A DNA stretch of 64,000 nucleotides from contig JBPOGI010000001.1 of the NCBI GenBank assembly GCA_051251855.1, positions 1,376,001-1,440,000 of the forward strand, given 5' to 3'. Below the pieces are notes generated by a model. It saw nothing but the letters and a program-made list of their open reading frames with translations, searched no databases and was not told the DNA's origin. The number at the start of each line of letters is the position of its first letter. Position 1 is the first letter of the stretch. The stretch comes from Roseibacillus sp. Lineage in GTDB: Bacteria; Verrucomicrobiota; Verrucomicrobiia; Verrucomicrobiales; Akkermansiaceae. Both the position numbers and the translations under genes were made by a program. This document shows positions 1-15,550 of the stretch, piece by piece.

Positions 1-38
1 TTCTTAGCTTTTTGAATTTCTGCAACAGAGTCAGCCAT
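1..38 (-). CDS. 5' fragment of a probable cytochrome c oxidase subunit IV-like protein (runs off the window)
   Basis: ATG at 38, 6 nt after the subunit III stop, reading MADSVAEIQKAK. The identity is inferred from position only. Confidence 0.4.
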   Translation of the reverse strand, partial: MADSVAEIQKAK

Positions 39-44
39 GGTGAA

Positions 45-1790
45 TTACATCAAGTAAAGGATTGGGAAGAGGAAGATCCAGACGAGGTCAACGAAGTGCC
101 AAAATAAGCCTCCAACCTCGACTCGGTTCGCGAGACGCTCGGGATTGTTCAAATACATTTTCTTTCCGAAGAAAAGAAAATGACCTAGGACAATGATACC
201 ACCGATAACGTGGAGTCCATGCAGTCCGGTAATAAGGAAATAAATAGCGTAGTAGTTATTCCAACGGGGGGTGAACTTACTTTCCAAGTTCACCTCTTCA
301 CGAGGAACGACTACTTCCGGGAAATGCTTCGCATAATCTTTCTTGTGGTTAGGGCCCGCAAATCCACTAAAGACACCCTTCTCATCATTACCCTCCCCCA
401 TGTTCACCAATTCCTGCCATCCCATACGGTAGCGTTCAGTGTCGGTAGGAACATGCGTCGGCTTGCCATCTTTCCCCAACCCATGCTTTTTGAGAAGTTC
501 CTTCTCCAACTCCCCGATGTGCTTTATATGTTTCTCCCAAAGCGCTTTCACCTCTGGATTATTCTTAATAATCCATGTGGACTGAATCGCAACCTCGGGG
601 TCGATGCCCTTCTCCTCTGCTCGCTGAGCAACGAACCGAAAATCTACAGCATCAGCCGCCATCTCAATCTGGCTATGCTTGCTGTCCATCTCACCTCCAA
701 GAAGAGTACCATCCTTAAAGCTAGCCGAAGAAGCCGTTTCGAGAACATCACGTGGCTTGAGAACAAAAGTTACCTTCGGCTCAATATTGAAAGTGACGGA
801 TGAAGGAGCCCTAACGATAAAATCATCAAAAGCAGGGTTAAGCTCAAGTTTGTCCTTAATCTTGTAGGAAGGCTCATTACGCATGTCCTTAGGAAGATCC
901 TTCCTAAGACGCGCCCATGCATCGCGATTTTGCTTTGTGCGAATAGCAGCATTGTGCGCTTTCGCATCGAGATGCACTTCACGGAGTTTCTTGAGAAGTC
1001 CCAAGGTAAGAAGCTCACCCTCTTTCGCCAACTCAGTCTCGGCAACTTCGGGGTTGCTTCGACCACTCACGGTTGAAGCGAGCTTCACGTCACGCTTCTG
1101 AGATTGAGCCTGTAGCATCAAATCCTGAATAGTCGGGTCGTAAAAACGCTCAAGGTCGATCGTAATCGTGTCTGCGTTGAAGATTACCTGATTGAAGTAA
1201 TGCTTCTCTTTCTTACCCTTGGATTTGCCACCATGATCGTCGGCAGACTCTTCCTTGTCGGCAACAAGAATCATGCCACTAGATTCGAAGGAGCCATTGG
1301 CATGTTCCTCGGCTTTTTTGGCGTGGGAGTCCCCATGCCCTTCGGGGTGGTAGTGTTCAATCTTCCCCTCGGAATCGATAGTGAATTTGTGAGTGTGGCC
1401 TTCCAAGACAACAAAGTCTTTCATGCGCACCGCTTGGTGACTCCACTTTGCCTTATACTCGATCCCTTTGAGGACCATAAAGAGACCAGCACAAAGTAAT
1501 GTGATCACCATGTAGACCTGAAACTGACGCCACTTGCGCATCTTGAGAGAAGCCCAAGCAAAGACGATCGTAACTGAAGAAAAGATGAGAATGAAGGTAT
1601 TGATCAAACCAGGCACCACAGGCAACGCCCGCTCTGGCCAAGGAAAGTCAGCATAGACTCGCAAGAAAACGTATCCGGAGAAGAGACCTCCAAAGAGCAT
1701 CACTTCCGATGCAAGGAACAACCAAAGGCCTACTTTTGCATTGTAAAGGCCGGTGTCCTTGCGGGCGGTAACAGTATAGGGAATATCCAT
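45..1790 (-). CDS. coxC: Heme-copper oxidase subunit III with a ~390-aa soluble insertion
   Basis: N-terminal WLFLASEVMLFGGLF and C-terminal TGLHGLHVIGG...GLFWHFVDLVWIFLF are COX3 signatures. 581 aa against ~200 aa for short bacterial subunits III. Confidence 0.9.
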   Translation of the reverse strand: MDIPYTVTARKDTGLYNAKVGLWLFLASEVMLFGGLFSGYVFLRVYADFPWPERALPVVPGLINTFILIFSSVTIVFAWASLKMRKWRQFQVYMVITLLCAGLFMVLKGIEYKAKWSHQAVRMKDFVVLEGHTHKFTIDSEGKIEHYHPEGHGDSHAKKAEEHANGSFESSGMILVADKEESADDHGGKSKGKKEKHYFNQVIFNADTITIDLERFYDPTIQDLMLQAQSQKRDVKLASTVSGRSNPEVAETELAKEGELLTLGLLKKLREVHLDAKAHNAAIRTKQNRDAWARLRKDLPKDMRNEPSYKIKDKLELNPAFDDFIVRAPSSVTFNIEPKVTFVLKPRDVLETASSASFKDGTLLGGEMDSKHSQIEMAADAVDFRFVAQRAEEKGIDPEVAIQSTWIIKNNPEVKALWEKHIKHIGELEKELLKKHGLGKDGKPTHVPTDTERYRMGWQELVNMGEGNDEKGVFSGFAGPNHKKDYAKHFPEVVVPREEVNLESKFTPRWNNYYAIYFLITGLHGLHVIGGIIVLGHFLFFGKKMYLNNPERLANRVEVGGLFWHFVDLVWIFLFPILYLM

Positions 1791-1811
1791 GATATCAGGA
1801 AAGTCGACAGG

Positions 1812-3713
1812 TTAGGCAACAGTAGGCTTAGACTCCTCTTTGGTTGGAGCGGACTCGGGTGCAGCCTTAGAAGGCTCATGCCACTGTGGCATGTAATCTT
1901 CATCACAATCAGGACGAGAATATTCGTAAGGACCGCGATAGACTGAAGGCTCGGTAAGGAAGTTTCCATGCCCTGGAGGCGTTGGAGTCGCCCACTCAAG
2001 GGTCGTCGCATTCCAAGGATTGTCGTTCTCAACCTTCTTACCACGGCGCCATGCGAAGAAAACGTTAAGGATGAAAGGAATCTGTGCCAGCGCGAGCAAG
2101 AAAGCGGCATTCGACATCGTGATATTGAGAGGCATATACTGCTCAACCGTATTGCCGAAGACGTTTGCACTCTCGCTCGCTTGGGCCAAGTAAGCGTCTC
2201 CTCCGTTATACCAACGACGATGGAAACCAGCCATTCCCTGCACCAACATTGGGAAGAAGAGCAAGTTAACGAAAATCAACGAAGGCCAGAAGTGAAGGTG
2301 CCCCAGAAGGTTGTTCATGTATCGGCCAGTAATCTTTGGATACCAGTGGTAGACGCCTGCGAAAAGACCAAAGAGAATACCAGGTGCTACCACGTAGTGG
2401 AAGTGACCAATCACGTAGTAGGTGTCGTGAAGGTGAAGCCCCACAAGGTTGAAGGCAAGAGGCAGACCGGTAAGGCCACCAATTCCAAACATAGGAATAA
2501 ATGCAGTTGCCCAAAGCATCGGCACTGTGAACCGAATCGAACCACCCCACATCGAGATAATAAGTGAAGTCAGAAGAATCACCGACGGAATCGAAATCAA
2601 TACCGTCGTTGTCTGGAAGAAGGTCGAAATCACGGGACCCATTCCGGTGAGATACATATGGTGAGCCCAAACAATGAAACTCAAGAAACCGAGGATAATT
2701 ACAGACCAAACCATGGGACGGTATCCCCAGAGAGGCTTACGAGTATTGCAGGGAATAATTTCCGCGACACAAGCAATGGCAGGAAGGAGAAGAACATAAA
2801 CCTCGGGGTGACCTAGGAACCAGAAAAGGTGCTGATAGAGAAGAGGACTACCACTACCAGCAACCTCCAAAGCACCACTACCTGTCACCAAACCAGAAGG
2901 CATGAAGAAAGAAGATCCAAAGACACGGTCACTCAGCTGCATCAGAGCTGCTGCTTCAAGGGGTGGGAAAGCAAGCAAAAGAAGAAAACCGGTCACCAGC
3001 ATGGCCCATACGAAAAACGGCAAACGCATCCAAGTCATCCCCTTCGCTCGAAGGTTAATAATGGTGGTCAAGAAGTTGACCGCACCAAGGAGCGAGGAAG
3101 AGATGAGAAAGACCATCGCTAGTAACCACCAAGTCTGTCCGGTCATCCACTGGTTGGGAGCACCCGCCTGTTGCAGACCAGCAAGAGGAGAATAGTTTGT
3201 CCAGCCTGATTGAGCTGCACCGGTATTGAGGAAGAAACTTGCCAACATCAACATACCGCCAACGAAGTAGAGCCAGAAACTCCACATGTTCAACTTAGGG
3301 AAAGCCATGTCGATTGCTCCAATCTGAAGGGGCATCACGTAATTACCGAAAGCGGCGAATCCAAGAGGAACCACTCCCAAGAAAACCATAATCGTTCCGT
3401 GCATCGCACCGAACATATTGTAGGTCTCCCCCTTCACCATTCCGTCCTGAAGCCAACGAGCCTTCCAGTCTGCGCTGAAAAAGAAAGACATCCACTCGGG
3501 AAGTGGCTCATGAGGATAGGCGATTGACCAGCGCATCACCATCATCAAACAGAATCCGATGAGAAGAAAAATTAGGGAAACTAATCCGTATTGGATGCCG
3601 ATCGTCTTGTGGTCAGTCGAGAAAAAATACTTCTCAAGAAAGCTCGGATTATGATGGTCATCATGGTGATGATCATCGTGAGAATGGTCTGCGGTTGGTG
3701 CTGCTGCGCTCAT
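1812..3713 (-). CDS. coxA: Cytochrome c oxidase subunit I, A1-type
   Basis: MHGTIMVF, FLGHPEVY, WAHHMY, HDTYYVIGHFHYV and RR pair are all present, as is the D-channel segment GNY...IGAIDMAFP. Confidence 0.95.
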   Translation of the reverse strand: MSAAAPTADHSHDDHHHDDHHNPSFLEKYFFSTDHKTIGIQYGLVSLIFLLIGFCLMMVMRWSIAYPHEPLPEWMSFFFSADWKARWLQDGMVKGETYNMFGAMHGTIMVFLGVVPLGFAAFGNYVMPLQIGAIDMAFPKLNMWSFWLYFVGGMLMLASFFLNTGAAQSGWTNYSPLAGLQQAGAPNQWMTGQTWWLLAMVFLISSSLLGAVNFLTTIINLRAKGMTWMRLPFFVWAMLVTGFLLLLAFPPLEAAALMQLSDRVFGSSFFMPSGLVTGSGALEVAGSGSPLLYQHLFWFLGHPEVYVLLLPAIACVAEIIPCNTRKPLWGYRPMVWSVIILGFLSFIVWAHHMYLTGMGPVISTFFQTTTVLISIPSVILLTSLIISMWGGSIRFTVPMLWATAFIPMFGIGGLTGLPLAFNLVGLHLHDTYYVIGHFHYVVAPGILFGLFAGVYHWYPKITGRYMNNLLGHLHFWPSLIFVNLLFFPMLVQGMAGFHRRWYNGGDAYLAQASESANVFGNTVEQYMPLNITMSNAAFLLALAQIPFILNVFFAWRRGKKVENDNPWNATTLEWATPTPPGHGNFLTEPSVYRGPYEYSRPDCDEDYMPQWHEPSKAAPESAPTKEESKPTVA

Positions 3714-3737
3714 CGTCGGAATCTAGATCAAGTTCTG

Positions 3738-4523
3738 TTAGTTTCCACCAGCATTTGCAACTGGAAGGTATGTTTCGAAGTCAATGATGGTTGCGGGATC
3801 CATCGTTTCGCCTGGAAGAAGTTTCATATGGCCGTCCAAAAGCTCTTGAGCACTCGTAGCCTTGCCGGCTCCACGCGCTTCGTAGGCATCAATTGCAACT
3901 TGGGCCTGCTCGATGGTGACGACATCACCAACGTTGTTTAGTCCATTGCGAAGATATGTCATCAAAGGTGCGAGCTCTTTCGCTGAGAGAGGTCCTTGTG
4001 CGGGCATCGCCCCATTCCATGTCTTACCAGCCACCTCGATAGGTCCTTGGACTCCGTTAAGAATAATCATTCCTAGAGCTTCGGTATTATCACCAACCAC
4101 CCACTCAGAATCAGCAAGTGGAGGAAAATTCGCTCCATCACCTTTACCGTCAGCGCCGTGACAACCAGCGCACTTACCGTAGGTTTTAGCTCCTTGCTTC
4201 ACGAAGAAAGGAAGCATCTCTCCTTCAGTAACTTCTTCGACCCCACCGGAAGTGTCTGGCTCGAAGTCATTCGCCCACATAGTGCTCTCATCGTATGCAA
4301 AGAGAGCTCCACCCTTACCGAGCACACCACCACCTACCAAAAGAGCTATACCAGCGCAAAGGAACAGCCAGAGCGGCACGGGCTCCATACCGTTTTCGTG
4401 AAGACGACGCTCACGAATCGTCGCAGGGGTCGCCCCCTCAAAAACAGCGTGCGTCTCAGCTACGTTGATCTCCTCGTCGAGGTCAGGTCGAAGCCGGGCG
4501 TTAGGTTCTTGCTCAGAAGACAT
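3738..4523 (-). CDS. Membrane-anchored monoheme cytochrome c
   Basis: One TM segment, CAGCH heme motif, FPPLA, distal Met in WNGAMP. Confidence 0.9.
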   Translation of the reverse strand: MSSEQEPNARLRPDLDEEINVAETHAVFEGATPATIRERRLHENGMEPVPLWLFLCAGIALLVGGGVLGKGGALFAYDESTMWANDFEPDTSGGVEEVTEGEMLPFFVKQGAKTYGKCAGCHGADGKGDGANFPPLADSEWVVGDNTEALGMIILNGVQGPIEVAGKTWNGAMPAQGPLSAKELAPLMTYLRNGLNNVGDVVTIEQAQVAIDAYEARGAGKATSAQELLDGHMKLLPGETMDPATIIDFETYLPVANAGGN

Positions 4524-4541
4524 GGTTAAATTCGTTAGCGC

Positions 4542-5174
4542 TTACTTTTTGCGAGGGTTAAGAGAGGTCGGAATGGTATTATCCTTCCGCATCGAAAGGA
4601 GGTAGGCCGCAAGTGCTTTCGCCTCAGGCTTAGGTTTACTGGCACTTCCATTGAACATGAAAGAAAGTGACGGGCACACGGACTTGTAGTCGTAGTCGCG
4701 TGGATTGTAGAGGTGATTGAGTAGCCACTGCTCGGGTGTAATCGCCTGCTCTGCCCCTTGACGCTGTGCGCGAATCGCAACATTACTTAAGTCCTGACCG
4801 ACTCGGCCCTGACCAATGTAGGCAAACTTTTCGCCGGCAAAATCGAAAGGATTGGTCTCGCGACGGGAATCTTCGATACCTTCCGCTGCATTCGAGGGAA
4901 CACCCGCCCAGTCTTCGCGATACATGTCTGTCCCCGCATAGCTTGGACGAATCAATTGAGTGTGGCAAAGAGCACATCCATTGGCGGCATAGATGGGAGC
5001 GCCGTCAGTGCGGCCGGTCCGCTGAAATTCGTAGACACCGTCGAAGCCGTCCTGTGCCTCGTTAAAGGTAGGAGCCTCCAGATTGGCCATCTGAACATAG
5101 GGAATCGCAATTGCGAAAACCCATGGAAGTCCAAAGGCGGCGCTGAGACCGATGAGAAAAGTTTTAAAGTTCAT
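4542..5174 (-). CDS. CcoO/FixO-like (cbb3 subunit II-like) monoheme cytochrome c
   Basis: N-terminal TM, Y...GCALCHTQLIRP, G.GRVGQDL and HLYNPR match the FixO family pattern. Confidence 0.8.
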   Translation of the reverse strand: MNFKTFLIGLSAAFGLPWVFAIAIPYVQMANLEAPTFNEAQDGFDGVYEFQRTGRTDGAPIYAANGCALCHTQLIRPSYAGTDMYREDWAGVPSNAAEGIEDSRRETNPFDFAGEKFAYIGQGRVGQDLSNVAIRAQRQGAEQAITPEQWLLNHLYNPRDYDYKSVCPSLSFMFNGSASKPKPEAKALAAYLLSMRKDNTIPTSLNPRKK

Positions 5175-6667
5175 TATGCCTTGGCTGCTTGAAGTTCTTC
5201 AATATCACCCTCTGGGCCGTGAGGAGAATTCGCATGATGTCCCCCATCAAGCAATGTGGGATGGGTGCTTCGGCGACCAAGCCGTGCCCACATCAAAAGG
5301 AGGTGAGAGAGAAAGATGAAGTTAGCAAGGGCGATGAAGAGCCATGCGAGAGTCGTTCCCACCGCATAAGCCTTACCAAAAGTCGCAGCATCTGCCCAGG
5401 GGGCACTGGAATCATTCTGAGCACCTCCTTGGAAAGCTCCCCCAATAATGGAACACAACACGACGGCTGCGACACCATAGAGAGACAGGAAGAAATGGCT
5501 CTTGATGAATCGCTTAGACAACCACTCGCGACGAGTGACGCGAGGCACCACAAAGTAGATGAGTCCGAAAATGCACATGCTGAAAAATCCGTAAATCGCA
5601 AGAATATCGAAACCGTACCCTGTGAGACTAAATTGAGTCGCGGCAAGGCTCCCGCTCGTGTTTAAGAAGAGGCCAAAGATTCCCAAAAGAAGCATCCCAA
5701 CCATACCACCTAAGGTGAAATGAAGAGAGGGACTATTGCGAGCAGCTCCACTTTCATCCTGAAGAATCGTGCGTAAAATATTTACTGCAACCGCCAGCGC
5801 AGGAATCAAGAAAAGAACAGTCGCAGCAGCACCAACATAAGGCAAAAACTGGGGAATGGGTGCACCAGCCAATTTTTGGAAGCCAGCCCATGGCGCAATG
5901 ACCATCAAAGACCAAAAACCGAAAAGCGCCAGGTGGTAGCTGTGAACCGGCCGACCGGTGACCTTAGGTGCCAAGTAGTAAGCCGAAGAAATGGCCACCG
6001 GTGCGAGGAAGAGGAAGAGCATTCCAGAACGGAACCATTCTGAAACAGCAGCCTTCATCAAGGGATGTCCATCGAGAACGAAGACAAATAAGTGAGCGCT
6101 GAAGAAGATCCATGGAAATGCAATAATCGCGGCCAACAAATACCATTGAGAAACATAAATATGCCCCTTTTCGCGAACCTGGAACTGAATCCCCGACCAA
6201 ATGGTGGTCAAGATGTAACTAATGAGAAGCATAGGCCAAACGAAAGTAGGAAAAGCCATCCAAGTCACCCCAGTGCTACCACCCAAAAGAATACCAACAA
6301 GACCAAGACTGATAGCGATATTCCAAATGTGACCAGCAATCAAAATAAGAACACTGTTCTTCGACTCTTTGCGACAAAGACGAGCCATGAGCCAAATAAT
6401 GGCACCAAAGGCAGCCTGACAGGCCCATCCGTAAAGAAGGATATTCTGATGAGCGAGAGAGAGACGACCAGTTGTTGCCCATGCCGCATCTCCGAGGAAA
6501 TCCGGTGAGTGGCTCTTGAAAGAGGAAGCAAATCCAAGAAGCACCGCAACGAAAAGCCAAAGGGCTCCGCTGGTGAAAAAGAACATCACCGGGTGCCGCA
6601 GCGAGCGGTCGATATCGGCGCGCAATTTGGCGTCCTTGGGATCAGAATTCTGTGCAGTTGCAGACAT
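5174..6667 (-). CDS. CcoN-like (cbb3 subunit I-like) membrane protein, degenerate active site
   Basis: About 12 TM segments, GRL..AH.N..LYGW, HIYVSQWY, YYLAPKVTGRPVHSY.L..FGFW. The CuB and heme b3 histidines are absent. Confidence 0.75.
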   Translation of the reverse strand: MSATAQNSDPKDAKLRADIDRSLRHPVMFFFTSGALWLFVAVLLGFASSFKSHSPDFLGDAAWATTGRLSLAHQNILLYGWACQAAFGAIIWLMARLCRKESKNSVLILIAGHIWNIAISLGLVGILLGGSTGVTWMAFPTFVWPMLLISYILTTIWSGIQFQVREKGHIYVSQWYLLAAIIAFPWIFFSAHLFVFVLDGHPLMKAAVSEWFRSGMLFLFLAPVAISSAYYLAPKVTGRPVHSYHLALFGFWSLMVIAPWAGFQKLAGAPIPQFLPYVGAAATVLFLIPALAVAVNILRTILQDESGAARNSPSLHFTLGGMVGMLLLGIFGLFLNTSGSLAATQFSLTGYGFDILAIYGFFSMCIFGLIYFVVPRVTRREWLSKRFIKSHFFLSLYGVAAVVLCSIIGGAFQGGAQNDSSAPWADAATFGKAYAVGTTLAWLFIALANFIFLSHLLLMWARLGRRSTHPTLLDGGHHANSPHGPEGDIEELQAAKA

Positions 6668-6670
6668 GAC

Positions 6671-7318
6671 TTAGAGAGCAGAAGGGTCAGCGGGTTTAAA
6701 GAGAGTCTCCGGGCGAGGGGCTTGCGGAGCTGGAGCGGGAGATTTCTTAGCAGCGGGAGCTGGCTTCACTTCGGGAGCTGGTTTCGCTTCAGGAGCTGGT
6801 TTCGCTTCGGGAGCTGGCTTCGCTTCGGGAGCTGGTTTCGCTTCAGGAGCTGGTTTCGCTTCGGGAGCTGGTTTCGCTTCAGGAGCTGGTTTTGCTTCAG
6901 GAGCTGGTTTCGCTTCGGGAGCTGGCTTCGCTTCAGGAGCCGCAGCCTCGTCCGAGCTCTCCCCTTCTTCTGCGGGAGCCTCCTCGGCAACTGTCGCAGG
7001 GTCGCGGAACATGTCGTTCTTCATTGCCAAAGGCTTGCTGCTCACCCACTTGGCTCCAACGAGGGCAAAAACCTCTGAGGGAGGAACTTGAAGCTTGTCG
7101 CCATTCTCAACACGCTCAAAATTTTTGAGCTGCTCAGCTTCTACAAGCTCCCTTACCGCAAGACGGCGAGTCGCGCCGGCCTCATCAGCGGCAGTCACTT
7201 CAGGGGAACTGACCATAGGAGCTAGAATGAGTGCAATAATACCGAAGAGCAGAAAGGCTCCCAGCACGAGCCAAAAGGCCGTGAATCGCTTGATTGGTGT
7301 ATCGTTCGTAGCAGACAT
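6671..7318 (-). CDS. Single-TM membrane protein with a PEAKPA-repeat tail (possible accessory subunit)
   Basis: ATG abuts the actF stop. One TM helix and 10 hexapeptide repeats. Confidence 0.75.
   Translation of the reverse strand: MSATNDTPIKRFTAFWLVLGAFLLFGIIALILAPMVSSPEVTAADEAGATRRLAVRELVEAEQLKNFERVENGDKLQVPPSEVFALVGAKWVSSKPLAMKNDMFRDPATVAEEAPAEEGESSDEAAAPEAKPAPEAKPAPEAKPAPEAKPAPEAKPAPEAKPAPEAKPAPEAKPAPEAKPAPEVKPAPAAKKSPAPAPQAPRPETLFKPADPSAL
6756..6940. repeat. 18-bp coding tandem repeat, 10 units
   Basis: Unit GGAGCTGG(T/C)TTCGCTTC(A/G), with mostly synonymous variation. Confidence 0.95.
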
Positions 7319-8671
7319 TTAGTTGTGAACGTTGGCAGATTCGAGAATACGAGGATCGCGATGCGGATAGAGCGAAACCGAGGTGATATTGCGGAGCAAG
7401 AAGAAGACAAATCCACAGCCGACAATGAAGAAGGCAATTAAGTCGCCAATCCAAGCACCGGGCATCCAGAGCTTAGGGTCGTGAGAAACAACATTTCCAA
7501 CCGAAGGACCGCGCTCAGGAATGATCATGTGGTAGATATCGAGGAAGTGCATGAAGAGAAGGTATCCCGCAATCGCCAACATGAAGTTATTCTTCTTCTT
7601 CAGGTCTGAACGAAGAAGCAACAAGAACGGCGCCCCAAAATGCCCTAAGACGAGAACGTAACTGAGAACATTCCAGTTTTCAGTGTTCCGAAGAATGAAG
7701 TAACGGGTCTCCTCCGTGACATTCGCATACCAGTAAAGAAAGAATTGTGAGAACGAGATATAGGCCCAGAAGATGGTAAAAGCGAAGATGAGCTTACCCA
7801 TTAAATGGTCGTGCTCAGCAGTGACCACCTTCTTCATGAAGCCAGCCTTCCGAAGAAGAATACTGACTATCAAAATGACCGCCATGGAGTTCAAAGCACT
7901 ACCAGCGAAGATGTAAACACCCCACATGGTAGAGAACCAAGTGTAGTCGAGGCCCATCACCCAATCAACACCGATAAAAGTGAGAGTCACTCCAAAGATT
8001 GCGATTCCCCAGGAAGACATCGAGCGAGCCTTAAAAAGGCGGTCAGTTCCTGGCGAAGGACAAGTATCTTGGTCGACTGACAACTTACGGAGCTTCCAAA
8101 TCACGAAGCCGAGACCAAGGAAGAAGATCACGAAGCGAGCGTGCCAGAATTCAAGGCTGAGATACCAAATCTTGGCAATCAACATTCCGTCATGTTTAGC
8201 AGCGCGAGCTTCAAGTCCTGCTGCCGCACTGGTATCTTCAAGACCATAGTCCTTCGCATACTGAATTGCGGTTTTGTGCTCAGTCATCCACTCGAAAAGG
8301 AATGTCTGAACACTTGGGAAAAGAAGAGGAAGGGCGAAGATGAACATGAACGGGAAAACAAAGCCCACGTTCTCAAAAATACGGCGAACTGAAGTCCCCC
8401 ACCCTGAATTCGACACGTTGTGAAGCAGCGTCCAAAAACAACCACCCAAAGCAATCGTGAAAAAGTAGAAAACGGCAAATAACCAAGAGAAGGAATAGTT
8501 ACCTTTCAGTTCGCTAGGTTTCTCTGGATTATGTCCCCAAAGGAAAACTGCGCTGGCAAGCAAGCCGATCAAAGCGACCGCTCCACAAACAAGCATCATT
8601 AGCTGAACCTTGCTCTTCGGCAATTGTTCTCCATTAACCGGAATATCGGCGGATGTTACTCTATGTCCCAT
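7319..8671 (-). CDS. actF: Alternative complex III subunit ActF
   Basis: Polytopic membrane protein with DWVMGL...WFSTMWG and FWAYISFSQF..YWYANV.EET motifs, located after actE. Confidence 0.85.
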   Translation of the reverse strand: MGHRVTSADIPVNGEQLPKSKVQLMMLVCGAVALIGLLASAVFLWGHNPEKPSELKGNYSFSWLFAVFYFFTIALGGCFWTLLHNVSNSGWGTSVRRIFENVGFVFPFMFIFALPLLFPSVQTFLFEWMTEHKTAIQYAKDYGLEDTSAAAGLEARAAKHDGMLIAKIWYLSLEFWHARFVIFFLGLGFVIWKLRKLSVDQDTCPSPGTDRLFKARSMSSWGIAIFGVTLTFIGVDWVMGLDYTWFSTMWGVYIFAGSALNSMAVILIVSILLRKAGFMKKVVTAEHDHLMGKLIFAFTIFWAYISFSQFFLYWYANVTEETRYFILRNTENWNVLSYVLVLGHFGAPFLLLLRSDLKKKNNFMLAIAGYLLFMHFLDIYHMIIPERGPSVGNVVSHDPKLWMPGAWIGDLIAFFIVGCGFVFFLLRNITSVSLYPHRDPRILESANVHN

Positions 8672-9327
8672 TACTGTCCTTCCCCTTTCTGTCCCAAATC
8701 TTCTGCTGAAACCTCGCGGGCTTCTTGCATCGCACGCACATAAGCGACAATCGCCCAGCGGTCTTCAACTGGAATGTTCATGCCGTAGGCACCCATCATT
8801 CCCTTACCGTGAGTAATCACGTGATAAAGCATCCCATCAGGGTAGCTCTCAGTTTGAAACGTTCCTTCGTGCAAATTACGCACTCCGGTCAAACCCAACT
8901 TTGAAACAGTGCCGCCTCCGTCGCCGGACTCACCGTGACAAATAGCACAGAAGATTCCGTAGCGGTCATGGCCACGAGCAAAAAATGCTTCTGCAGTCTC
9001 TGCCGTGAGCGCTAACTCTTCGGGCATCCCTGTTCCGTAATAACCTTCCGTCAAACCGGTGTAGTAGTAGCCGGTGCGACCTTCGCCGAACTCCACCGAA
9101 AAGACACCGTCATCACCTGAATTAGGAATGGTGCCCACTACTGGGAGGCGTGAGCCTTTGCCATCTTCGAAAAAGTCGTTTGGCTTTTGCCCCTTGACCT
9201 TATCCTGCTCGTCCATATCTGGGAAGAGACGGAAAGGTGGACGCTCGAACTTACTGCCCGGAATCCCGAAGATTCCGACAACCGCCAAAGCGATGAAGGC
9301 GTAGACTATGAAAAAGTATTTGAGCAT
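8671..9327 (-). CDS. actE: Alternative complex III monoheme subunit ActE
   Basis: FPDMDEQ, CAICH, HGKGMM, DRWAIVAYVRA. Confidence 0.88.
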   Translation of the reverse strand: MLKYFFIVYAFIALAVVGIFGIPGSKFERPPFRLFPDMDEQDKVKGQKPNDFFEDGKGSRLPVVGTIPNSGDDGVFSVEFGEGRTGYYYTGLTEGYYGTGMPEELALTAETAEAFFARGHDRYGIFCAICHGESGDGGGTVSKLGLTGVRNLHEGTFQTESYPDGMLYHVITHGKGMMGAYGMNIPVEDRWAIVAYVRAMQEAREVSAEDLGQKGEGQ

Positions 9328-9336
9328 GGTTTTGCT

Positions 9337-9891
9337 TTAGTTTTCGTCTTCGACCAGTTCGATGTTAGCTCCGCCGATTTCGTCGAGGAGCGCCTTTGTT
9401 CCCTCCGCAGAGAACTTGGGGTCGCGTGCTTCGATAGAAATAAAGAATCCATCGTCGGTTGCGCGGGCGAACTGCTTACTAGCAAACAAAGGGTGATTAA
9501 GGCGTGGCAACTGCATCAGACCAAGAAGTCCAAACAAAGTAGTGAAACCTGAGAAAAGAACCGTCAGCTCGAACATGATCGGGAAGAAGGCTGGGACGGT
9601 GAAGATGTTTGCGGGTTTTCCCTGAACCACCGTGGGATAAATCTCGACTTGAGTAATATAGGCAAGGGCAAGAGCGGTACAGAAACCAGTCAACCCTCCA
9701 AAAAAGACGAAGTAAGGAAGGATTGAGCGCTTAATCCCCATCGCATCATCGAGACCGTGAATAGGATAAGAAGAGTGGCAATCCCACTTCTCGAAACCCG
9801 CATCGCGAACTTTCTCTGCTGCCTTGTAGAGCTTCGAGGCACTCTCGAATTCTGCCAAGTAACCGTAAACTCGTTTGACCGTGGTGCTCAT
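9337..9891 (-). CDS. actD: Alternative complex III subunit ActD (DUF3341)
   Basis: YPIHGLDDAMG, PAFFPIMFELTVLF, two TM segments. Confidence 0.9.
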   Translation of the reverse strand: MSTTVKRVYGYLAEFESASKLYKAAEKVRDAGFEKWDCHSSYPIHGLDDAMGIKRSILPYFVFFGGLTGFCTALALAYITQVEIYPTVVQGKPANIFTVPAFFPIMFELTVLFSGFTTLFGLLGLMQLPRLNHPLFASKQFARATDDGFFISIEARDPKFSAEGTKALLDEIGGANIELVEDEN

Positions 9892-11381
9892 CAGACTTTT
9901 GCCTCCCCATTTTCAATTTCAAGTTGATAGGCAGGGATAACCTCTGTGCCTTCGTCAACATGCTCTTCGTTATCTTCGAAGTGCGGGTCGCTTTCCAGCT
10001 TGGTCCACTTCACCTCCGCAATGTTAATGCAGGGCAAGAATCGGAGGAAGAGAAGGAAGAGCGTTAGGAACATTCCAATCGTGCCCACGAAGAGCATAAT
10101 GTCGTTTCCGCTTGGGTAGAAATACTTCCAGTCGCCAGGCAACCACATGCGGGAAAGAGTCGTGACAATAATCACAAAGCGTTCGAACCACATGCCGATG
10201 TTCACACACATACAAACTGCCATCACAACCCAGAGATTCTCGCGGCATTTTTTCCACCAGAAAATCTGAGGAGAAATTACGTTACAAGCCATCATGGTGA
10301 AGTAGGCCCAGTTGTAGGGACCAGCGATACGGAACTTGAAGGCTTCCATCTCATATTTAGCCGCTCCGTAGAACGCCATGAAGAGCTCCATAAGATAGGC
10401 GTATCCAACAATGGAACCGGTCAGGAGGATGATTTTCGCCATGTTATCGACGTGCTTCATCGTGATGAGGTCACTGAGGCCGTAGATGAAGCGAGCAGGA
10501 ATCATGATGGTCAATACCATCGCAAATCCGCCGAAAATCGCACCAGCGACAAAGTAAGGTGGGAAAATGGTGGTGTGCCATCCGGGAACGACAGAGGTCG
10601 CGAAGTCAAACGATACCACGGAGTGAACCGAGAGAACGAGTGGTGTCGAAAGAGCAGCCAAAAGCAAGTAGGCCATCTCATAGTGAGACCAGTGACGGTT
10701 CGAACCACGCCAGCCCAAACTGAAGACTCCGTAAAGAAGCTTACGAATCTTTCCAGTCGCTCGATCACGAATAGTCGCAAGGTCAGGAACCATTCCGAGA
10801 TACCAGAAGATAAGAGAAATGGTAAAGTAAGTCGAAACCGCGAAAACGTCCCAAAGAAGCGGAGACTTGAAGTTCTGCCAAATCGCGTTCGGGTTTGGAA
10901 TAGGAGCTAAATACCAAGCCATCCAAACACGACCAACGTGGAAGGCTGGGAAAATACCTGCGCACATCACCGCAAAAATGGTCATCGCCTCAGCGGCTCG
11001 GTTAATCGAGGTCCGCCAGTTCTGACGAGTCAGGAAGAGAATGGCCGAAATCAGCGTTCCTGCGTGACCAATACCAATCCAGAAAACGAAGTTTACAATC
11101 GGCCAACCCCACATCGCACGGTTGGAGTTTCCCCAAACGCCTACTCCAGTAGAAACAAGCTGGAACAAGCCCCCTCCCACTCCGATGGCTGCGATAAGAG
11201 CACAAGGAATGAAGAGCATCCACCAAAGCATAGGCTGGGGATTTTCGACCACTCCACAGATCCGCTCCGTGATCCAATTGTAGGACCGCTTGTTGAGAAT
11301 CAACTTCTCACGTTCAAGAACGGGCAACTTGGGCCCTTCTCTCTTCGCTGAAGTCTCGTTACTGACTGTTGCTTCCGCCAT
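9891..11381 (-). CDS. actC: Alternative complex III subunit ActC (NrfD family quinol-binding subunit)
   Basis: [56 protein letters not shown]. Confidence 0.95.
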
Positions 11382-11387
11382 GCCCTA

Positions 11388-14300
11388 TTAGTGAATGTTG
11401 ATGGTCGCTTGTCCCACGCTCTTCGCGTCGGGCATTGCTGTGTTAGGATTTTTCACCCGCGCCAGGTAACTGGTCCGTGGCAAGGTGCCGATATAGTTCA
11501 AAAGGTCGTAGTTGCGCTGCGAGTTCTTAGCGCGCACCATGGCAGACTTGTCGCCGTCAAGCTTGTTACCGAAAGTAATGGCTCCTGCTGGACAAGCGTC
11601 CTGACAGGCCACCTTCGCAGAATCAACCTTGATGCGAAGGTCTTCGTTAGAAATCTCAACGCTAGTAGAAGCGACTCCAAGAGACTTCTTCCGAGTAATT
11701 TGTTTCTGCTTAATTTTAGCATTCTCAAGACGCTGCACGCAATAGGTGCACTTCTCCATCACCCCGCGCATGCGCACAGAAACGTTCGGGTTACGTTGAA
11801 GAGAGCGAGAATCACCCACCTGCTTCTCGCCCCAAGGACCCTTGTAGAGATTCTTCTCAACAAGAGGATTGCGCTTGTTGTAGTCGAAGAAGTTGAAGCG
11901 ACGTGCCTTATAAGGACAGTTATTCGCGCAGTAGCGGGTTCCGATACAGCGGTTGTAGGCCATCGCGTTGAGACCTTCCTCGGTGTGAACCGTTGCGTTG
12001 ACGGGGCAAACTACCTCACAAGGAGCAAGCTCACACTGCTGGCAAGCAACAGGCTGAGGAATCATCTCTGGATTATCCTCATCTCCATCAGGAGTCGCAG
12101 CATAGTAGCGGTCCATCCGAATCCAGTGCATTTCGCGACCTTTCGCGACTTGCTCTTTACCAACGACAGGAATCGTATTCTCAGACTGACAAGCGACCAA
12201 ACAAGCGTTGCAACCCATGCAAGTATTGAGGTCAATCGCCATCGCCCACTGGTGAATTTCATCCGAAATCAGTGGCTTACCCTCAGTATCGTTGGGCTTG
12301 TAGATGGAGTGATTCTTCGGCATGTGCGAATCCATGCCTTGCTTCGCGACCTTCTTGAGTTGGGTCTTGAAGTCCTTGGTGCCGTGACCTTTTGTCTCGA
12401 CATCAGCGGTAGAAATTTCACGAGCGAGCGCGCGACCATACATCGCGTGGTGCTCTTGGGTAAGCGCTACCGGATAGCGACCTGAATTCTTAGCAACCTT
12501 GGCACCGGTAGCGGCCCAAAGAGCGTCGAAGTTGCGGAGAGGATAAACGTTGAAGCCAGCATTGAGCCCCACATCACCAACCGTTGGCTGAGCAGAATTA
12601 AACTGAATGGCTCCACTACGGTCTTCATCGTCTGTTGCCTGCCCATAACCCACTGGAAGAACGATGGTGTTTTCAGCGAGACCAAAAGAAACAAGGACAG
12701 GCAGCTTAACTGATTTGCCACCGAGCGTGACATCGATCATGTAAGCACGAGCCTTTTCCCCTTCTCCAATCTCAGGACGGGGAGAGTTCTTAACGTCGAC
12801 CCCTGCCACATTGTTAATGGGCTCGAGCTCAACCAACTCCTTAGAAATTCCCAAAGCATCGGCTGTTTTGGGAGAAATGTAAGCGACGTTGTCCCAAGTG
12901 AGCTTGGAAATCGGGTCGGGAGCCTCTTGCAACCATGAGTTATCGATGTAGCGACCGTCCCAAACGGAAGCATCAGCTGCGAAAATCACATCCAAGGCAT
13001 CTTTGGTCGGAGCAGCTGCCTCGAGAGCTTTGCCAGGGTTAGCATTTACGTTAGGAGCCTTAGCTTCGGGATAAGTAGCATCAACGAAACCTTCTTGAAG
13101 AGCCTTTGCCCAAGAAGAAGCGTCTTTGCCAACAGCGGCATCAAAGGTCTTGCGAACTTCATCGTAGCCCGCAGAAGGAGTCGTTTCGTCACCCAGCTTC
13201 AGCTCGCCTCCATTAAGAAGTGCGCTCAACAATTCTAGCTCGCCCACTCCGTCATAGAGAGGAAGAATCAGAGGTTGAATCAGAGCATGGGTTCCTTTTG
13301 CCGTTTTGGCATCCGACCAGCTTTCCAAGTAGTGAGCGGCAGGAACGTGCCAAGTGGTAGCGTAAGAAGTTGCATCGGTGCGAAGACCCAAATGAATGGA
13401 AGTCTTCACCTTGCCGAGCAACTCCTTGAAATTAACATCCGCAGGAGAATCGTAAACAGGGTTACTAGGGGTGAGGAGAATGAGAGTCTCCAGCGCGCCT
13501 CCCTCAAGGTCCTTCACCAACTGAGTGAATCCAGCAAAGTTCTTCGTTCCGGTTTGAACGAGAGTGGCAGGCTTTCCTTTTCCAACGTTACCAAGAGCAA
13601 CGTTGATAGCGGCAACCACCTCATGGAGTTCTTTGGACTGACGGCTACCCGCAAGAACCACAGACTTGCCCTTGTTAGACTGTAAGTCCTTCGCACACTC
13701 AGCGACCCACTTGGCATCGGACTCTGAAAGAGAAACATCTCCTTGAACCTTCGCTCCAACAGCCTTGCCAACTGCAGTTGCGATCTTAATAAACTGACTT
13801 GGAGCGATGCGAAGACGATGATCAGCTACCCCACCAGTGAGAGAGTAGGCTGCCTCTACCTGGTAGAGACGGTTCATCTCCTCCGCCTTCATCTCGTGGG
13901 CGTAAAGCTTGTCCTTATCGTGCGCACCACCTTGACGGCGGTCGAAGAACGGCTTCACAGGACCAACTTGGTCAAGTGAGGTGAAATCGCAGTCGAAAGA
14001 AAGAATGCGGTCCGCTTTTTCGAAATCAACCACCATGCGAACTCCAGCGCCAAGAACCTCTTCAGAAGCGTGACTCTCTAGAGCCTCGTAACGGTAGGCC
14101 TTGGCCGCGGGAAACTTCTTTTTAATTTCGCCCCAAACACGATTGCGGGTCGGGCTGTCATCTTCTCCAAAAACAAAGCCTACTTTACCAGGATTCGCAG
14201 AGAGCTCCTTGAGCGCAGCATCCAATTCGGCACGAGTAGACTTTTTACCGTCCTTGAGGACATCCTTGGAACGGAAGGGATCGTAAAGATTGAGAATGGA

Positions 14301-14738
14301 AGCCTGAGTGAAAGCATCAGTTCCGCTTGCGTCTGCAAAAGCGTTGTTAGGCTCCAACTTGGTGGGGCGACCCTCGAAAGTGGTCACCACCAAAGGAACC
14401 GCTCCTCCTGGACGAGGCATGGTGGTCGCGTAATAGAGAGCCTTTCCGGGAATCACCCACTCAGGAGCCTGGGTATAAGGAACAATGTAAGTCTCTGGGC
14501 GACGACAAGACGCCAAACCAAAACCGGCAAGTGCTGAGGAAGCACCCATCAATTTGACGAAACTACGACGGGAAAGCTCGCGCTCTTCTTCGGTCAACTC
14601 GCCGCTTTTCTCGGGAAATTCGCGATGCAGCCAATCCTGAAACAGAGGATTACCTTCCAACTCGGCGGGACTGCGCCAAACCTGAGTCTCCAGCTCGTCA
14701 GCGGGCACTTCAGGATGATTCCAAACTCGTTTACTCAT
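11388..14738 (-). CDS. actB: Alternative complex III subunit ActB (molybdopterin-oxidoreductase-like plus Fe-S domain)
   Basis: Tat motif SRRSFVK with lipobox LASC. Fe-S motifs CMGCNACLVAC, CQQCELAPCEVVCP, CIGTRYCANNCPY, CTYC...CQDACP. Confidence 0.95.
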   Translation of the reverse strand: MSKRVWNHPEVPADELETQVWRSPAELEGNPLFQDWLHREFPEKSGELTEEERELSRRSFVKLMGASSALAGFGLASCRRPETYIVPYTQAPEWVIPGKALYYATTMPRPGGAVPLVVTTFEGRPTKLEPNNAFADASGTDAFTQASILNLYDPFRSKDVLKDGKKSTRAELDAALKELSANPGKVGFVFGEDDSPTRNRVWGEIKKKFPAAKAYRYEALESHASEEVLGAGVRMVVDFEKADRILSFDCDFTSLDQVGPVKPFFDRRQGGAHDKDKLYAHEMKAEEMNRLYQVEAAYSLTGGVADHRLRIAPSQFIKIATAVGKAVGAKVQGDVSLSESDAKWVAECAKDLQSNKGKSVVLAGSRQSKELHEVVAAINVALGNVGKGKPATLVQTGTKNFAGFTQLVKDLEGGALETLILLTPSNPVYDSPADVNFKELLGKVKTSIHLGLRTDATSYATTWHVPAAHYLESWSDAKTAKGTHALIQPLILPLYDGVGELELLSALLNGGELKLGDETTPSAGYDEVRKTFDAAVGKDASSWAKALQEGFVDATYPEAKAPNVNANPGKALEAAAPTKDALDVIFAADASVWDGRYIDNSWLQEAPDPISKLTWDNVAYISPKTADALGISKELVELEPINNVAGVDVKNSPRPEIGEGEKARAYMIDVTLGGKSVKLPVLVSFGLAENTIVLPVGYGQATDDEDRSGAIQFNSAQPTVGDVGLNAGFNVYPLRNFDALWAATGAKVAKNSGRYPVALTQEHHAMYGRALAREISTADVETKGHGTKDFKTQLKKVAKQGMDSHMPKNHSIYKPNDTEGKPLISDEIHQWAMAIDLNTCMGCNACLVACQSENTIPVVGKEQVAKGREMHWIRMDRYYAATPDGDEDNPEMIPQPVACQQCELAPCEVVCPVNATVHTEEGLNAMAYNRCIGTRYCANNCPYKARRFNFFDYNKRNPLVEKNLYKGPWGEKQVGDSRSLQRNPNVSVRMRGVMEKCTYCVQRLENAKIKQKQITRKKSLGVASTSVEISNEDLRIKVDSAKVACQDACPAGAITFGNKLDGDKSAMVRAKNSQRNYDLLNYIGTLPRTSYLARVKNPNTAMPDAKSVGQATINIH

Positions 14739-14757
14739 CTTGGGCGTAAAATTCTAA

Positions 14758-15486
14758 TTAGCGGTGACAGGTAGCGCAGCTCTCTTTGGGCTTCACATTC
14801 CAGTGTGCCTTCAGGTAATTCCCGAAATCGGTCTGGGACTCAATGGCGTTGCCTTTCGCATCCTTGATGGGATTGGCCTTCAAATACTTCTCAACGTCGT
14901 AATCGAGGTTAGTCACCTCTTCAATAGGACGAAGATGCTCCTCGGGGGCTCGGTGACAATCAAGACACCATCCCATTGAAAGAGACTCTTCATGATGAAC
15001 AATCTTCATCTTATCAACGTCACCGTGACAACTCTGACAAGAGACCCCGCGGTTTACGTGTGCAGAGTGGTTAAAGTAGACATAATCGGGCGCCTTGTGA
15101 ACACGCACCCACTCAAGAGGAACCGGCGTCACTTCAGCACCGCTTTTTTGGTCAATGCCCATTGCAGCGTAGAGAGGAGAAAGCTTTGGACTATCCGACT
15201 TTACCTTGTTGGGTCCGTGGCAATTCCAACAGACATTCGCCGATGGCACATTCGCGTGGGAACCATGCTCTACAAAACTGTGACAGTAACGACAATCCAT
15301 CCCCAACTGGTTCACGTGAATCTCGTGACTGTAAGGGATTGGTTGGGTGGGTTGGTATCCGACCCGTAGTGAGCTTGGGTTAATGTAGACCGCAAACACA
15401 AACGTCACTCCGAACGCAAGAGCCCCGAGGCAAATTGCGAGTTTGAGTGGTGTAAAATTGGACCAACGAGGAAAGAAATTCGCCAT
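14758..15486 (-). CDS. actA: Alternative complex III pentaheme cytochrome ActA
   Basis: One TM and five CxxCH motifs (CRYCH, CWNCH, CQSCH, CLDCH, CATCH). Confidence 0.93.
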   Translation of the reverse strand: MANFFPRWSNFTPLKLAICLGALAFGVTFVFAVYINPSSLRVGYQPTQPIPYSHEIHVNQLGMDCRYCHSFVEHGSHANVPSANVCWNCHGPNKVKSDSPKLSPLYAAMGIDQKSGAEVTPVPLEWVRVHKAPDYVYFNHSAHVNRGVSCQSCHGDVDKMKIVHHEESLSMGWCLDCHRAPEEHLRPIEEVTNLDYDVEKYLKANPIKDAKGNAIESQTDFGNYLKAHWNVKPKESCATCHR

Positions 15487-15507: not shown

Positions 15508-15550
15508 TTGTGAAATTTTTCACAAGCTCAGTTTGTGAAATTTTTCACAA
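15508..15550. promoter_or_regulatory. Two identical palindromic operators TTGTGAAATTTTTCACAA (Rex-type; also fits the CRP consensus)
   Basis: Copies at 15508-15525 and 15533-15550, 21-64 nt upstream of the actA ATG. Confidence 0.8.

Follow-up and report, generated by a model that had tools for sequence, protein, structure and literature searches.

An ACIII-aa3 operon with a ligand-less CcoN

We analysed a 64,000-nucleotide stretch of a Roseibacillus sp. genome (G000:C1:1376001-1440000, hereafter the window), in which an operon on the minus strand combines alternative complex III (ACIII), a three-gene module resembling parts of a cbb3 oxidase, and an A-type (aa3) cytochrome c oxidase. The window holds the 5' part of the operon, which continues past its left edge; taken together, the genes make up a single ACIII-aa3 operon of 16 genes, the last of which encodes an intact CuA subunit. 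A previous sequence-only reading of the window had proposed the order actA-B-C-D-E-F, a transmembrane protein, a CcoN-like protein, a CcoO-like protein, a monoheme cytochrome c, coxA and coxC, and this order is confirmed, with gaps of -1 to 24 bp between the genes. It was also right that coxA is preceded by neither a CuA gene nor an SCO gene; the sole SCO match of the genome lies on another contig (C9). Unless a contig is named, coordinates below are positions in the window, and all the operon genes lie on the minus strand.

The unusual part of the locus, absent from that reading, is the loss of metal ligands from the CcoN-like protein (5174..6667), which we assigned as a pseudo-subunit I from residue alignment, predicted fold and selection. 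Aligned with PDB 9g6b and 3mk7 and with two intact C-family subunits I encoded on contigs C7 and C9 of the same genome, it retains only one of the six metal-binding histidines, H73 in helix II. The three CuB histidine positions are occupied by S214, Q264 and K265, the heme b3 histidine by F353, the second low-spin heme b histidine by I355, and the cross-linking tyrosine of helix VII by A258; R57 is likewise replaced by S70, and the loop residues E122 and E125 by T135 and A138. The ligand set of a nitric oxide (NO) reductase, in which a high-spin heme is paired with a non-heme metal held by His together with Glu, Asp, Asn or Gln, is lacking as well, since there is no heme b3 histidine and no conserved set (the families cNOR, qNOR, gNOR and others being defined as in the relevant passages of PMC11214002). 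Judged by these residues, the CcoN-like protein is predicted to be catalytically dead.

The predicted structure (AlphaFold, pLDDT 88.6) shows the 12-helix heme-copper fold and is closest to CcoN, with Foldseek template-modelling scores of 0.83-0.84 to 8smr and 3mk7. Comparison of four congeners indicated strong purifying selection, with nonsynonymous divergence (dN) of 0.07-0.11 against near-saturated synonymous divergence (dS) of 1.9-2.8, that is, a dN/dS of about 0.04. Fifty-five mostly structural alignment columns are conserved in the intact and the ligand-less classes alike, and 60 are lost in the ligand-less class only. The protein falls well short of the ccoN cut-off, with 83 bits where 583 are required, and its close homologs, which come from Roseibacillus, Luteolibacter and Akkermansiaceae as befits a member of Verrucomicrobiales, are named 'cbb3-type cytochrome c oxidase subunit I' in the databases.

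As for the two paralogs, one belongs to a second N-O-cytochrome c operon, which is fully intact and shares its subtype with the module (G000:C7:580597-583327, with subunit I at C7:581888-583327). This operon stands away from ACIII, and its neighbours look by sequence like genes for a peroxiredoxin, a sulfide oxidoreductase, a rhodanese and a metal ATPase; in the tree it falls within the ACIII-linked copies from other orders, which may point to a transfer. The other is a canonical cbb3 oxidase (G000:C9:141115-144542), composed of a fused CcoN-CcoO of 848 amino acids (C9:141996-144542) and a monoheme CcoP-like gene.

Both heme proteins of the module are present. The CcoO-like monoheme cytochrome c (4542..5174) has an N-terminal transmembrane helix and a CxxCH domain (CALCH at 67), and matches the CcoO fold and heme motif with an E value of 4e-19, while its Cys167 aligns with the distal methionine of the SxMP motif. 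Hemes c with His/Cys ligation have very low potentials. The third gene (3738..4523) encodes a membrane-anchored, c552-like monoheme cytochrome c with CAGCH at 118 and Met173, whose best PDB matches in a profile search were the tethered cytochrome of a Cu nitrite reductase (E 7e-33) and cytochrome c552 (3e-29), CcoP ranking lower at 2e-19. The c552 of Thermus donates electrons to CuA.

We then located the CuA subunit, for which the sequence-only reading had left room beyond the left edge of the window. An intact coxB (CAQLCGDQHGNM; G000:C1:1374432-1375220, window -1568..-780) indeed closes the operon 0.8-1.6 kb beyond that edge; the encoded protein has the full CuA motif, with the ligands H177 and C212-AQLCGDQHGNM, and no heme c. 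This gene is the only COX2 match of the genome and its only open reading frame with a CuA motif, although its score of 122.8 bits falls below the TIGR02866 cut-off of 147.7. The coxB tail is kept in 18 of the 20 same-order loci that we fetched, the other two stopping at contig ends, and the CoxB of this operon showed no CxxCH in any locus read. The order coxA-coxC-coxD-coxB was also found outside Verrucomicrobiota, in L197, L207 and L212, without any Cco module. The earlier proposal that the Cco-like module replaces CuA is therefore wrong, because an intact coxB ends the operon both here and in the same-order loci; a coxB downstream of subunit IV, which is what we found, is the sequence part of what that reading had itself named as evidence against it.

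The catalytic subunit CoxA (1812..3713), of the A family, keeps all six histidines (105, 302, 351, 352, 437 and 439), Tyr306 of the His-Tyr cross-link, and D135 and E304 of the D-channel. Its K-channel lysine, which we take to be K362 in R. sphaeroides numbering, is replaced by Leu380, and this lysine was missing in 21 of the 24 CoxA sequences read, present in 2 and unread in 1. Its loss is common to most CoxA of the coxA-C-D-B type, including that of L212 outside Verrucomicrobiota. Repeated K-channel loss among A-family oxidases is described in the pertinent part of PMC8239418. With regard to heme A as a possible cofactor, a ctaA gene is present at C1:1456007-1456927.

The ACIII genes actA to actF all lie within one cluster. 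The actA gene (14758..15486) encodes a pentaheme cytochrome c with five CxxCH motifs and without a sixth monoheme domain, and actB (11388..14738), assigned from domain match and synteny, a large iron-sulfur (Fe-S) subunit with 4Fe-4S domains near its C-terminus. They are followed by actC for an NrfD-family membrane subunit (9891..11381, PF03916), actD (9337..9891, PF11821, E 5e-59), actE for a monoheme cytochrome c (8671..9327), and actF (7319..8671), which found no match in Pfam or NCBIfam and is named from its position and conservation only. Two further loci, L043 and L048, contain the module, the cox genes and actE-F but no match to actA-D in the fetched stretches, possibly reflecting a split cluster.

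Distribution and repeated loss of the ligands

The CcoN-like protein was matched in 56 of 61 related genomes and in 59 of 251 genomes drawn across the phylum. We compiled 133 loci, excluding duplicates, the loci of the Roseibacillus genome itself, canonical CcoN loci and one frameshifted locus; this sample is weighted to the family of the window, and its rows are not independent. Of the 133, 97 loci proved ligand-less, with zero to three of the six histidines, and 36 intact, with all six. The equivalents of H60, H207, H257, H258, H345, H347, R57, E122, E125 and Y251 are all present in 36/36 intact loci, whereas the cross-linking tyrosine is present in 0/97 ligand-less ones, 22 of which have none of the six histidines left. 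The residues that replace the ligands differ from lineage to lineage. The gene actF precedes the module in 95 of the 97 ligand-less loci, and the order N-O-c is kept in nearly all loci that extend far enough to reveal it. ActA had five hemes in all 36 loci in which they were counted.

The two heme proteins have fared differently. In the ligand-less loci that could be scored, the last cytochrome c retains CxxCH in 93/93 and its methionine in 91/93, and the CcoO-like protein retains CxxCH in 89/93; the distal methionine of CcoO, found in 36/36 intact loci, is kept in 44/93 ligand-less ones. Cysteine occupies this position in 37/93, comprising every family-f1 locus read together with L042, L044, L146 and L172 outside that family; elsewhere among the ligand-less lineages the residue is Ser, Lys, Arg, His or Met.

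A first tree contained 49 same-order sequences, every one of them ligand-less. That tree, unrooted and with 87 rows, forced only two changes of a parsimony count of four. With the ligand columns and the longest branches (L104, L055, L056 and L103) removed and canonical CcoN as root, a tree of 45 rows gave four losses, each required by branches supported at 95 or more, and a single ligand-less clade was rejected by the approximately unbiased (AU) test (p-AU 0.0067).

We also scanned for ACIII loci by means of ActC, covering the named genomes in 2/64 parts of the collection. Among the loci titled Verrucomicrobiota, 32 of 40 carried the CcoN-like gene (28 ligand-less, 3 intact and 1 frameshifted) and the other 8 end before it, whereas the module was found in 0/40 loci from outside the phylum, several of these loci being incomplete. 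Two Ignavibacteria loci had a canonical ccoNO-P instead. An ACIII-linked C-family oxidase thus appears to be ancestral in this class, with catalysis dropped repeatedly.

In 16 genomes that are at least 90% complete, the ligand-less gene is the only CcoN-like match, and the pseudo-CcoN is therefore no helper of a working cbb3 oxidase. A coxB match was present in all 21 ligand-less genomes outside the order and missing in 7 of the 33 intact genomes (Fisher p 0.035).

A proposed link between ACIII and CuA, and the systems described before

These data suggest, as the somewhat favoured explanation, that an ex-cbb3 oxidase without metal ligands has become a membrane scaffold, which would hold cytochrome c between ACIII and CuA. 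The sequence-only reading had offered two possibilities, with the cbb3-derived heme c subunits carrying electrons from ACIII to the A-type oxidase either in place of CuA or in addition to it, and we infer that the second is the best reading. With only five hemes in ActA and no heme c in CoxB, a carrier from ACIII to CuA is missing, and it is likely provided by the module; the genome has no match to cytochrome b (PF00033). Electrons would pass from quinol through ActC, the ActB Fe-S centres and the five hemes of ActA to ActE, on to the tethered c552-like cytochrome (3738-4523), and then through CuA of CoxB and through CoxA to oxygen, while the emptied CcoN, together with CcoO, would hold the cytochrome c at ACIII. 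In the ancestor, the same three genes would have formed ACIII's own terminal oxidase; the A-type oxidase would then have taken over oxygen reduction, after which the catalytic site decayed in four lineages and the protein body stayed. The CcoO heme, from which electrons once entered CcoN, probably lies outside the main route, and its distal ligand could therefore drift to Cys, Ser or Lys.

Several observations weigh against this proposal. H73 is invariant in 120/120 of the closest homologs, Q264 is kept in 117/120 and K265 in 105/120, and such conservation, together with the fixed Cys167, is more than a pure scaffold would obviously need. Four Opitutales-side genomes have a ligand-less gene that is not followed by cox genes, and the A-type oxidases read in them are caa3 enzymes with a fused heme c; the fifth genome inspected combines an aa3 operon located elsewhere with a B-type enzyme that bears heme c. 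Since the caa3 oxidases of those genomes carry their own heme c, the module is kept there without a carrier gap. Intact modules also adjoin a full aa3 operon, in L086 and L088, so gaining aa3 does not force ligand loss. Finally, four of the seven coxB-less genomes belong to one genus, and the coxB association thus rests on related genomes.

Another explanation, which we consider unlikely while giving it the most room among the alternatives, is that ligand-less CcoN and CcoO are entrenched structural subunits required for ACIII assembly or stability, with the cytochrome c as an independent tethered carrier. The position of the gene after actF/actG in nearly all loci, even where the caa3 of the genome is equipped with a heme c, would fit this explanation, as would the relaxed distal ligand of CcoO; however, the 40 ACIII loci scanned outside Verrucomicrobiota, several of them incomplete, showed no such module, and its three genes stay joined as N-O-c almost throughout. 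The module of the window's family may alternatively have acquired a new redox role, with a His/Cys low-potential heme in CcoO and perhaps a residual heme at H73 serving for sensing or as a side route, be it for electrons, NO or sulfide. We hold this to be rather improbable: the recurrent cysteine in CcoO and the near invariance of H73, Q264 and K/R265 in the 120 closest homologs speak for it, but R57 and the second heme b histidine are gone, and, because the distal residue varies among lineages and 22 of 97 copies keep no histidine, no such chemistry is common to all ligand-less copies.

The remaining explanations are far less probable. Long branches in several ligand-less lineages, and two TGA stops inside one copy (G021), might mark the three genes as a decaying relic kept only inside an essential operon, but this idea is already contradicted by the selection data, the fold is predicted to be retained, and, barring G021 and those cut by contig ends, no copy inspected within the order is shortened; we give it very little credence. 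Even less is left for a replacement of the CuA subunit II by Cco-like heme c subunits, for which the lack of a coxB before coxA could be cited, as a coxB with all CuA ligands ends the operon and the coxA-coxC-coxD-coxB order exists without the module. Equally slight is the chance that, in line with what databases and papers assume, the CcoN-like protein still functions, either as a cbb3 oxidase or as a new NO reductase whose ligands have been substituted. The database names point that way, and some heme-copper families tolerate one altered active-site histidine (gNOR, in the passages of PMC11214002 concerned), but here the losses extend to all three ligands of CuB, that of the high-spin heme, one of those of the low-spin heme, and the tyrosine, with replacements that differ per lineage, and the profile score is far below the cut-off.

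Returning to the scaffold proposal, a fuller version may be sketched, which we put forward only tentatively. In Verrucomicrobiales, ACIII, a heme-copper pseudo-enzyme and an aa3 oxidase without the K-channel lysine would form a three-part supercomplex, physically bridged by the body of CcoN, with electrons reaching CuA from its c552-like partner and with the His/Cys heme of CcoO as a new low-potential centre; within this one phylum, the switch from catalyst to adaptor would have occurred four times, and the verrucomicrobial methanotrophs would own one of these dead copies as their 'cbb3'.

Compared with the cbb3 oxidases CcoN-CcoO-CcoP of Pseudomonas stutzeri (3MK7) and P. aeruginosa (8SMR), the module shares the 12-helix CcoN fold, the CcoO fold and heme motif, and the N-O-cytochrome c order. 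It differs in having, by its residues, neither the binuclear centre nor the low-spin heme site, in the cysteine at the distal methionine of CcoO, in its third subunit, which is a monoheme c552-like protein and not a diheme CcoP, and in its place inside an ACIII-aa3 operon. The ACIII-aa3 of Flavobacterium johnsoniae (6BTM) and the ACIII-caa3 of Rhodothermus marinus likewise combine actA-G and an A-family CuA oxidase in one cluster, and the lack of a cytochrome b match in the present genome is a further point of agreement. According to the parts of PMC8552683 used here, electrons are shuttled to aa3 by the sixth ActA heme in F. johnsoniae and by the caa3 heme in R. marinus. Unlike them, the operon described here has no sixth ActA heme and no heme c in CoxB, places coxB last, and includes a CoxA without the K-channel lysine and an extra three-gene Cco-derived module. 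To the question of how ACIII passes electrons to an oxidase, which the sixth ActA heme answers in the one system and the caa3 heme in the other, the module would offer a third testable answer.

Clusters of ACIII plus cbb3 have been reported for verrucomicrobial methanotrophs and Opitutaceae, with ACIII, cbb3-like and aa3 genes adjacent as in the present neighbourhood. In the sections consulted, Schmitz 2021 (PMC8498564) and Kruse 2019 (PMC6688271) place ACIII beside a cbb3 oxidase in the methanotrophs, and Kruse 2019 ties this cbb3 to high oxygen affinity; bioRxiv 10.1101/2024.01.15.574570 describes genes for both aa3 and cbb3 as neighbours of ACIII, with the cbb3 termed high-affinity. Refojo 2010 is cited in PMC8498564 among the reports of such clusters, and, within the same limits, cbb3 is listed among the oxidases in PMC10205796 and for Limisphaera in PMC13608581. 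PMC8498564, PMC6688271 and the bioRxiv paper thus treat the cbb3 as a working oxidase in the sections concerned, two of them as a high-affinity one, whereas the protein here is ligand-less. We found no description of CcoN ligand loss or of a His/Cys CcoO in the open-access literature.

The Methylacidiphilum proteins bear on this point. Those of M. kamchatkense Kam1 and M. infernorum, named cbb3 subunit I, have one of the six histidines and no tyrosine. A homolog with 94% identity (locus L104) sits in an ACIII-N-O-c-coxA-C-D-B cluster, from which the gene context of the two proteins was inferred. The L104 genome and a congener encode two A-family subunits, one or two B-family subunits and one cNOR subunit, and no intact C-family subunit I. 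The published high-affinity cbb3 beside ACIII in Methylacidiphilum probably refers to a ligand-less protein; the oxygen affinity of these organisms would then rest on their ba3 and aa3 enzymes. Intact versions do exist in other families (the 36 loci above). More generally, oxygen reduction is unlikely, as far as the residues tell, for genes of this kind that bear the label 'high-affinity oxidase' in Verrucomicrobia, and physiological inference changes for the 16 nearly complete genomes, whose only 'cbb3 subunit I' is the ligand-less one. A conserved heme-copper subunit I without metal sites, accompanied by intact relatives in the same gene position, would provide a repeated natural series from enzyme to scaffold.

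Upstream palindromes and smaller features

Two copies of the perfect palindrome TTGTGAA-N4-TTCACAA, which we take to be the Rex consensus, lie upstream of the operon, the distal one at 15533..15550 and the second at 15508..15525, 22 bp before the start of actA. The genome contains eight matches with at most one mismatch, including these two, and the other six are located at C1:20084, C1:1148046, C1:1344018 (1 mismatch), C6:373008, C7:141412 and C7:488424; five of the six precede nuoG, nuoB, nuoD, ATP synthase subunit a and polyprenyl synthase, and the two intact cbb3 operons have none of the eight. Among 17 same-order loci, 15 show a perfect box ahead of actA, and boxes turned up in 28 of the 62 loci examined overall. 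A rex gene, scoring above the NCBIfam cut-offs, is present at C9:225469-226122. Since the upstream palindrome is shared with the nuoB, nuoD, nuoG and atp genes, the operon is probably part of a core respiratory regulon, which would be a small one of the Rex type; this sharing also counts in favour of the scaffold proposal. A scan for sigma-70 promoters and terminators revealed no excess over shuffled sequences (6 versus 10.3, and 23 versus 19.1).

Past coxC, the start of coxD is at position 38 of the window (1..38 for its 5' end), and the gene, named by position, encodes a subunit IV-like protein of 126 amino acids. Two small open reading frames, for proteins of 67 and 69 amino acids (G000:C1:1375446-1375649 and 1375224-1375433), separate coxD from coxB. 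Both products are membrane proteins, and the second begins with a CxxC motif; a role as a copper-handling factor would be a guess.

The transmembrane protein between actF and the module (6671..7318) is a single-helix, ActG-like protein with an (EAKPAP)n tail. It showed a weak profile match to ActG of PDB 8k9e_G (E 2.4e-4), while a single-sequence PDB search gave no match and the ESM Atlas returned only hypothetical Verrucomicrobiota clusters. Its tail is encoded by an 18-bp tandem repeat of 10.4 copies (window 6754-6940), and in L102 the gene at the ActG-like position bears a cytochrome c domain. The coxC product (45..1790), a subunit III of 581 amino acids, has a large soluble insertion of about 400 amino acids between its membrane parts, which has no Pfam match.

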